A stretch of 32,000 nucleotides of DNA from Candidatus Heimdallarchaeota archaeon B3_Heim (GCA_003144275.1 NJBF01000002.1:1-32000); one strand, 5' to 3'; numbered from the stretch's first letter, positions 24,283 to 25,679 are shown. Notes: generated from the sequence alone by a model not told the origin. Made by a program: numbers and translations.

Positions 24283-25524
24283 TCAAGTGACAACATATCT
24301 TAAAATTACGCATATGCCACCGAAACTTTCTATCTGACGTCCTTCTTCCGTTTGTGAACTTATAATCTCCACTTGTGTACTTGTCTTTTCTGCAAGATCA
24401 CCAAGGTCCATTATCAGGTCTTTTAGCACAACGTTCCAATTAACACTTTTGCATTGAGAGCACTGGTCTTTTTGTAAAGTAGAACTAAAGTTATCTACAT
24501 CAATTGGATCTAATGTTTTTTCTATAATATGGTTGCAATTTTTACATGTTGCAATTACTCGCGTTTTATTTACGCTTTCTGAAATTAATAATACCTCTAC
24601 TGCTCCCATTATTAGGTTCTCTCTAACCTGTTGTTCCCCATAATTGGCTTTTCCTGCAATAAGAGCATCTTTGAACCTTCGTACTAGCTGTTTTTCTTCC
24701 ATAATTGCAATTCCCTCCAAGACTTCCTCGGAATTTTCGACCAGTTCATTAATGCCACCTTCATCCCCGCCATATCCTAAATTTTTGATACCCACAACTT
24801 TATCTCGCAATCTGGGGTCAAAATGTTCAATAATTTGATCTTTGGTTTGACCTGGACCACCAATGATTACTCCTTTCAATTCATATTTAGCATCTTCAAG
24901 GAAGTATTGCTTCATTTCATCTGCTACTCGTTTTAAGTAACGAGCAATTGCTTCAACTCGCAGTCGAGCATACCGAACACTACTTTGACCGCCTTTTCTA
25001 TGTTTTTTTGCAGCTCCACTTCGTGTACTCTTAATAATCTGGACATGATCTCCCTTTAAGGTGGCAATAGTAGCTTTAGCACTGTCTATAGCTAATAGTG
25101 CAAAAACATCTTTTTCTCCCAATTTTTCAATCAGATGCTCAACATGGAATCGATTATCGCAAACATATAGCTTTCGTGAAATGGGATCTTTGGGTTCGAA
25201 AACGTAAGATTCTAACTTAAAATCCTTATGTCCAGAATCAGCAGTAGCACCCGCAAATATAGCCAATCCTGACTCTGGTGCTTTGTGTCCGTATAATCTA
25301 AGTTTTCCAATTACGTTTCTTAGAGCTGAGACAACGTTTTTCTGAGTAAATTTGCTTCTAATATTGGTAGCAGTGCCAATTTCATCTGATAATTCTTGTA
25401 CAAAATCTGCGATAGCACGATTTGGAGGAACATAAAGAGAAATCAGACATGTACTCCCATCAGGAGATTCTTTCTCTTTTAATTCTTTTAATTCCCTTTC
25501 ATATTTATAAGCTCTATAAGAAAT
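24283..25524 (-). CDS. prf1: Peptide chain release factor aRF1, 413 aa if initiated at ATT 25524
   Basis: The ORF track gives only 24283..25266, but the frame stays open 86 codons further upstream, encoding LISLYVPP and TATNIRS. Also YVCDNRF, GGQ, and the CxxC..CxxC insert. Confidence 0.95.
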   Translation of the reverse strand: MSYRAYKYERELKELKEKESPDGSTCLISLYVPPNRAIADFVQELSDEIGTATNIRSKFTQKNVVSALRNVIGKLRLYGHKAPESGLAIFAGATADSGHKDFKLESYVFEPKDPISRKLYVCDNRFHVEHLIEKLGEKDVFALLAIDSAKATIATLKGDHVQIIKSTRSGAAKKHRKGGQSSVRYARLRVEAIARYLKRVADEMKQYFLEDAKYELKGVIIGGPGQTKDQIIEHFDPRLRDKVVGIKNLGYGGDEGGINELVENSEEVLEGIAIMEEKQLVRRFKDALIAGKANYGEQQVRENLIMGAVEVLLISESVNKTRVIATCKNCNHIIEKTLDPIDVDNFSSTLQKDQCSQCKSVNWNVVLKDLIMDLGDLAEKTSTQVEIISSQTEEGRQIESFGGICVILRYVVT

Positions 25525-25533
25525 TGTAAATTT

Positions 25534-25538
25534 CTCCT
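25534..25538 (-). promoter_or_regulatory. Shine-Dalgarno AGGAG, 9 nt upstream of the in-frame ATT of aRF1
   Basis: Minus strand reads TAGGAGAAATTTACA-ATT-TCT; the 9-nt spacing matches that of mvk. Confidence 0.65.
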
Positions 25539-25679
25539 ATAATATTACTAGTAAGGATGTATTCTCCCCGTACTCCATATTTCTTTCTTTCAACACACTA
25601 ATAAAAGTATTATCAATGATAATAGCGAAAGAAGGGGAGAACGCACTTTTTGATTACAATTATGCAAGATCGAGTGAAA

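Follow-up and report, generated by a model that had tools for sequence, protein, structure and literature searches.

A probable AUU start codon on the aRF1 gene in a clade of Hodarchaeales

In the window, the whole stretch of 32,000 nucleotides that was analysed, the gene for the release factor aRF1 has no canonical start codon ahead of its N-terminal domain, and its translation probably begins at AUU (25524-25522, minus strand), as judged from comparison with related genomes. The arrangement is best described as a putatively long-lived near-cognate start, led by a Shine-Dalgarno (SD) sequence, on an essential release factor, in a genus with a low but noticeable rate of such starts. In archaea, aRF1 is the sole factor reading all three stop codons and acts at termination, and its amount affects every gene. 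The AUU start had been put forward in the first-pass annotation; as a proposed start it gains good comparative support from the conserved AGGAG-N9-ATT, from the aligned column of ATG codons and from purifying selection. A search of the accessible literature turned up no archaeal gene reported to initiate at AUU, let alone one with AUU as its only start, which counts against the reading.

The aRF1 gene and its start region

The names of homologues place the organism in the Hodarchaeales (Heimdallarchaeia, Asgard archaea). The genome (G000) is a metagenome-assembled genome (MAG), 94% complete and in 103 contigs. The aRF1 gene and the elements around its start are as follows.

24283-25524, minus strand: coding sequence of aRF1, 413 codons read from ATT and then the TGA stop (translation)
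25264-25266, minus strand: TTG, the first canonical in-frame start, codon 87 counted from ATT (direct read)
25495-25497, minus strand: codon 10, AGG here and ATG in near-identical strains (25496 C>A, contigs of three runs and G013)
25522-25524, minus strand: ATT, the proposed initiation codon, aligned with the ATG of 16 genus orthologues
25534-25538, minus strand: AGGAG, SD sequence placed 9 nt before ATT (16S rRNA 3' end GGATCACCTCCT)
25537-25539, minus strand: in-frame TAG closing the upstream frame, homologous to the ATG of sister lineages

The product read from ATT to the TGA at 24285-24283 scores 392.1 bits against the aRF1 equivalog model TIGR03676 (cut-off 234.7), with residues 5-411 matching model positions 2-402/403, and its best match among solved structures is Halobacterium aRF1 (4af1). 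The GGQ motif of peptidyl-tRNA hydrolysis is present as KGGQSS, and stop recognition is represented by TATNIRSK, a NIKS-type motif with Arg for Lys, and by YVCDNRFH (YxCxxxF); all of these align to 4af1 and eRF1. The gene has a single copy, with one match in the genome at its 94% completeness and a second match that is pelota-like. By sequence comparison, the aRF1 gene is intact and under strong purifying selection. Most aRF1s of the genus carry NIRS instead of NIKS. Domain C of the genus aRF1s (24400-24560 in the window) holds a CxxC...CxxC insert, and residues ~327-371 are absent in G001 and G016 (L021, L022) and in the 364-residue protein P0058.

Read on the minus strand, the in-frame sequence is TAG (25539-25537) GAG AAA TTT ACA ATT (25524-25522) TCT TAT AGA. 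Direct reading agrees with the first-pass annotation on the layout of this region: no in-frame ATG, GTG or TTG occurs from TAG 25539-25537 to TTG 25266, the stretch skipped by a start at that TTG encodes the stop-recognition domain (LISLYVPP and NIRS are read there), and AGGAG at 25538-25534 sits 9 nt before ATT. The normal length of the 413-residue protein is likewise borne out by its translation and by the end-to-end TIGR03676 match. A start at TTG 25266 would, by coverage of the model, remove the entire stop-codon-recognition domain. Only five codons separate TAG from the conserved N terminus in this genome, ATT being the sole one among them a single mismatch from AUG. Entry by frameshifting finds no feeding ORF in the other upstream frames of the window sequence. 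Some 87 codons without a canonical start would arise by chance at roughly 1% per gene, unremarkable in a genome of 4000 genes; the gap counts as more than chance because it is kept in relatives.

Among 198 starts fixed by orthology, ATG accounts for 64%, TTG for 21% and GTG for 16%, and the spacing, counted from the last base of GGAG, is most often 8-10 nt; in aRF1 it is 9. The initiator tRNA is present and ordinary (A1:U72, three G:C pairs in the anticodon stem, CAU). A defect of aIF1 as the cause is rejected, since aIF1 is complete, starts at ATG and differs in this clade by conservative changes only.

In the proposed mechanism, the AGGAG nine nucleotides upstream would place the 30S subunit at AUU, which the ordinary initiator Met-tRNA would read with a third-position mismatch, thereby giving a normal-length, Met-initiated aRF1 at a presumably lower efficiency per mRNA. 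The output would then depend on the stringency of start-codon selection by aIF1: as it is aIF1 that rejects AUU in Sulfolobus solfataricus, the aRF1 level should, if AUU is used, follow initiation stringency and not termination capacity. The rejection of AUU by Sulfolobus solfataricus aIF1 in vitro (Asano 2014, PMC4705826) counts against an AUU start. We take the weak start of aRF1 to be a tolerated state, about neutral or of slight benefit, in a lineage able to live with near-cognate starts.

Conservation and origin of the ATT

Contigs of four sequencing runs from four studies, covering 25522-25539, show no difference at ATT, AGGAG or TAG, which answers the suspicion of a sequencing error raised earlier. 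A check of start codons in relatives finds AGGAG-N9-ATT identical in five clade genomes (G000, G013, G020, G018 and G003), and a sixth lineage, the metagenomic protein P0002 with the same EKFNISY N terminus, reads ..QEKFNISYRAYK. ATT is kept in all five genomes of this clade; 16 genus orthologues and all sister lineages use ATG.

Pairwise dS among the ATT lineages is 0.9-1.6 over the first 200 codons, so that synonymous divergence is saturated, with dN/dS of 0.02-0.03, which indicates that the N domain is translated, essential and strongly constrained. Across these lineages, 11 of the 14 nucleotides of AGGAGAARTTTAYN are invariant, as against 36% of third codon positions, and AGGAG is unchanged in all five clade genomes despite the high dS. 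Half of the all-Ile columns of aRF1 (7 of 14) also retain a single codon, so that the invariance of ATT is by itself weak evidence. Clade and genus alike keep residues 2-9 (SYRAYKYE), and codon 10 is CAG in G018, G020 and G003. The retention of a weak AUU start by an essential factor over more than one substitution per synonymous site would be notable if true. Standard gene callers truncate or miss such genes: the public aRF1 entries of the clade start at Met10, start at an upstream TTG or are cut, and in the 404-residue P0001 the caller began at the codon-10 Met.

MSY(K/R)QYK is the N terminus in 16 other genus genomes, where the ATG aligns exactly with the ATT column. In the sister lineages (P0003-P0009 and P0012; DNA L032-L034), the protein starts ME(A/D/V)ITISY or MKTEDVTISY, so that the Ile is internal and the ATG lies five or seven codons upstream; the sister DNA L032 reads ..AATATTATATGGAGG.. 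where this genome reads ..AATATTATAGGAGAA.. The position of the sister ATG is occupied by TAG here, by CAG in G018 and G020, and by GAG in G003. In the aRF1 tree, the ATT genomes form one clade (100/98) within a group supported at 100/100 that includes the sister lineages, and all remaining members of this group start ME(A/D/V)ITISY or MKTEDVTISY. The nesting of the ATT clade, together with TAG, CAG or GAG at the sister ATG, points to a single loss of the ATG by the clade. The idea of the ATT as a recently mutated ATG has to be given up, the nearest sisters having an internal Ile at this position and their ATG five codons upstream. A GGAG that once encoded Met-Glu would have been left 9 nt ahead of an ATT. 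The AGGAG derives from the ATG-GAG-G coding sequence of the sisters, and its presence is therefore partly inherited and not newly selected.

Start positions of aRF1 have moved repeatedly in the group (0, -5, -7). In G012 (L013, G012:C13), aRF1 also has no canonical start and reads GGAGGT, 9 nt, then ACG TCG TAT, whereas its relative G011 has ..ACA ATG AGC TTT; the difference resembles a 3-nt deletion that removed the ATG. Based on this single MAG, 83% complete, the case looks like a second, independent aRF1 loss of ATG, as far as the sequences suggest. Two 403-residue entries (P0024 and P0048) were considered as further losses and dismissed: their contigs show a normal ATG AGC TAT, and the gene caller had picked Met11.

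Upstream region, suppressor tRNA and alternative explanations

The region ahead of the AUU holds the following elements, together with a mini-ORF that overlaps the 5' end of the gene.

25576-25578, minus strand: in-frame ATG opening a 13-codon frame, MEYGENTSLLVIL, that ends at TAG (direct read)
25599-25606, minus strand: TATA-like box TTTTATTA, conserved in the clade
25561-25642, minus strand: inverted repeat TTCTCCCCTTCTTTC ... GAAAGAA ... GGGGAGAA flanking the TATA-like box (alignment fold, 16 pairs)
25488-25502, minus strand: out-of-frame mini-ORF ATG AAA GGG AAT TAA, rejected as a functional element

The ATG at 25578-25576, 13 codons before TAG, is absent from the first-pass annotation. 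Of the five clade genomes, only G000 and G013 keep its frame whole: codon 3 is TAA in G003 and G020, G020 has a second TAA, and G018 has ACG in place of the ATG. In G018 and P0002 the frame is open to an upstream TTG, formally a canonical alternative, which by its position relative to the promoter would lie upstream of the predicted transcript start. From the TATA-like box, matched by T-rich boxes at a comparable distance in other members of the genus, transcription is predicted to start near 25575-25580. The inverted-repeat region and upstream intergenic sequence are far more conserved than synonymous sites. An alignment fold of the leader RNA predicts stems in which no compensatory change was found. 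One sequencing run labelled metatranscriptomic is probably DNA; its contig is 253 nt long.

The mini-ORF at 25502-25488, once suggested to add termination-sensitive coupling, loses its ATG to ACG in two of the five clade genomes (G018 and G020), the difference corresponding to TAT/TAC wobble of the aRF1 frame. A uORF in the ATG-type relatives (MEEFVKDQY..TGA) was also set aside, since its ATG is not kept, L008 having ATT in its place and L006 and L015 no counterpart; its TGA belongs to a GGTGA SD, and the stretch is accordingly read as conserved 5' UTR.

The genome carries an intron-containing tRNA-Gln gene (C10:37765-37873) with the amber anticodon CUA. Among the 17 genus genomes read at this gene (L113-L129), CUA occurs in G000, G013, G020, G003, G018 and G004, and CUG in the 11 others, including G012, the genome with ACG at the aRF1 start; the tRNA of G009 is normal. 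All five genomes with the ATT-start aRF1 are thus CUA genomes, the extra one being G004, whose aRF1 starts with ATG. In the aRF1 tree, G004 branches as the sister of G019, a CUG genome, and far from the ATT clade, which suggests that CUA arose twice, once without any change in aRF1. The branch shared by CUA and ATT amounts to a single event and so proves nothing. A suppressor competes with aRF1 at UAG, which makes a link mechanistically plausible, and its presence in the ATT clade renders release-factor dosage directly relevant to readthrough. A functional link between the loss of the aRF1 ATG (AUU start) and the CUG-to-CUA change of tRNA-Gln, in which a lowered or stringency-dependent aRF1 level would set UAG readthrough and the in-frame UAG between a 5'-terminal AUG and the AUU would add, in G000 and G013, a prfB-like competition of aRF1 with the suppressor on the aRF1 mRNA, is nevertheless rather improbable. 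If true, the linked AUU and CUA would represent an early and regulated step towards reassigning a stop codon, in archaea closely related to eukaryotes.

Genome-wide reassignment of TAG is dismissed: TAG still ends 22% of 507 orthologous ORFs here, compared with 17% in G009, and no signal of in-frame TAG paired with Gln was found in these ORFs. A candidate UAA suppressor, called by ARAGORN as 'tRNA-Stop(tta)' (C80:40049-40151), is tRNA-Lys(UUU) with a 37/38 intron.

An adaptive device specific to aRF1, in which the AUU start serves dosage or feedback, by holding the release factor at a low level or coupling its level to initiation stringency, and possibly co-evolved with tRNA-Gln(CUA), is an unlikely explanation. 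It draws on the ATG not having been restored in any lineage by a single T-to-G change over a summed synonymous length of ~2.5 (from pairwise dS), on the repeated start shifts in the group, on the independent G012 loss with ACG 9 nt after GGAGGT beside the ATG of G011, and on the division of CUA and CUG between the five ATT genomes and 11 other genus genomes. The non-reversion implies that ATG is not strongly favoured, and does not show that AUU is selected. Near-cognate starts occur on unrelated genes and in G009, where the aRF1 start and the tRNA are normal; aRF1 has no known role in start selection; TAG stops are not depleted and do not pair with Gln; and the co-occurrence in the clade is one event, with G004 combining CUA and an ATG-start aRF1 and G012 combining ACG and CUG. 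Production of aRF1 in G000 and G013 partly or mainly from AUG 25578, by readthrough of UAG 25539 by tRNA-Gln(CUA) in a prfB-like loop, would be favoured by the in-frame ATG with a single TAG as the only block, by the suppressor gene itself, by CAG (Gln) as the homologous codon in G018, G020 and P0002, and by a predicted transcript start at or beside this ATG. The reading is very unlikely, as the upstream frame is broken by TAA (G003, G020) and ACG (G018) and the genome has no UAA-reading tRNA; stops in upstream frame 0 are only mildly fewer (0-2, against 3-5 in other frames, over 43 codons), and the conserved SD-N9-ATT is left unexplained. With TAA or ACG in three of the five genomes, it is rejected as a mechanism for the whole clade.

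A different non-AUG codon or a downstream site (AGG 25497, with ATG there in sister strains) as the start would yield a product at least 9 residues shorter. The ATG at codon 10 in contigs of three runs and in G013 speaks for such a start, as does the TIGR03676 match, which begins at residue 5 of the 413-residue product, so that a few N-terminal residues are probably dispensable. Against it stand codon 10 itself, CAG in three clade genomes and AGG here with no preceding SD, and the conservation of SYRAYKYE in clade and genus, which leave this option only a slim chance. A pseudogene, or an assembly or sequencing error at the site, could be suspected in a MAG in which other genes carry frameshifts or nonsense codons. 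This is extremely improbable given the same sequence in five species-level genomes and in four independent assemblies, the low dN/dS and the status of the gene as the only aRF1 in the genome.

Known systems and candidate near-cognate starts elsewhere in the genome

An SD-led AUU start is also found on E. coli pcnB. E. coli infC resembles the case proposed for aRF1 here in carrying an SD-positioned AUU on a housekeeping gene, read by the initiator tRNA, with weak initiation that depends on a fidelity factor (PMC4705826). The difference is that IF3 is itself the fidelity factor and closes a feedback loop, a role that aRF1 is not known to have; moreover, unlike infC and pcnB, the present case involves archaeal machinery (aIF1, aIF1A, aIF2) and an AUU that is clade-specific and not family-wide. 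The analogy with infC, on which the idea of autoregulation had been built, is not supported: IF3 itself rejects AUU, whereas aRF1 has no known part in start choice, discrimination in archaea being the work of aIF1 (PMC4705826). No sign of autoregulation by the weak start was seen, near-cognate starts being present also on unrelated genes here and in G009. A literature search on Asgard non-canonical starts and on aRF1 autoregulation found nothing specific.

The bacterial prfB gene likewise encodes a class I release factor with an in-frame stop by an SD-like sequence, which here reads UAGGAG. In prfB (RF2), the ribosome undergoes a +1 frameshift at an in-frame UGA. The aRF1 gene differs in that its upstream frame is unconserved, it has neither a slippery site nor a second frame, and what is conserved is the AUU downstream; an early in-frame stop of the prfB type was not found conserved in relatives, the pair of ATG 25578 and TAG 25539 occurring only in G000 and G013. 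Within the eukaryotic family, plant eRF1-1 is controlled by a loop of readthrough and NMD. Recoding in the eRF1 family also occurs in the release-factor genes of Mimivirus and Megavirus (PMC3521657). Synthesis of these family members and, putatively, of the present aRF1 depends on an unusual translation event, theirs being readthrough or frameshifting at stops and this one lying at initiation.

Near-cognate initiation in eukaryotes, governed by eIF1 stringency, involves the same set of codons (AUU, AUC, AUA, CUG, ACG) that appears at start sites of the genus, and aIF1 is the homologue of eIF1. The archaeal cases differ in relying on SD pairing and not on scanning, in concerning ~0.3-0.5% of genes, and in being sole starts of ordinary genes and not uORFs or extensions. 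These frequencies come from stop-to-stop ORFs of the whole genome compared with 2 Mb of the complete relative G009 (793 orthologue pairs), giving ~0.5% of genes here and ~0.25% in G009. In E. coli only a handful of such starts are known, and the rate here would be several-fold above that. The survey suggests that start-codon stringency in the Hodarchaeales may be looser than assumed.

Three further genes of this genome show conservation extending well upstream of the first canonical start, with CTG, ATC or ATA as candidate starts. In an HD-domain gene (C80:45632, plus strand; L097:1632), CTG stands where G009 has ATG, behind GAGATGA and two codons after an in-frame TGA, and is kept in all five clade genomes (L104-L109). 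In G000 and G013 alone, an NMNAT gene (C80 ~57256, minus strand; L097:13256) has its GRFxPFHxGH motif ahead of any canonical start, with ATA or ATC behind AAGGAGG as candidates; G020 has TTG, and G003 and G018 have ATG (L098-L102). A DUF2064-like gene (C78 ~2540, plus strand) has GGAGG, 7 nt and ATC, compared with GGAGG, 7 nt and TTG in its G009 counterpart (G009:C1 ~1,622,600). In G009, where aRF1 has a normal ATG start, a GNAT gene has ATT behind an AGGAG-containing stretch, at the position of the ATG in G000 (C44), and an MBL-fold gene is a possible further case.

The remaining survey matches correspond to a frameshift, a nonsense codon, fragments or a conserved promoter. Among those set aside, the conserved 33-codon 'extension' of a 370-residue gene (C80:66634) is a non-coding promoter or UTR with a T-rich box and a hairpin, and a pyrG stub is ambiguous, an in-frame TTG overlapping its SD. 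An out-of-frame ATG within the SD-like stretch of the HD-domain gene is also conserved. A flavoprotein gene of the INGSPKK.. type (C47:22005, plus strand) has an in-frame TGA at the codon that is GGA (Gly) in G009, seven codons past the initial ATG; a nonsense allele, an error and reinitiation at the next ATA are all conceivable. A GPH/MFS-type transporter gene (C101:24425, plus strand) is split, in comparison with its 470-residue G009 orthologue, by a frameshift of one base within a run of CCCC.
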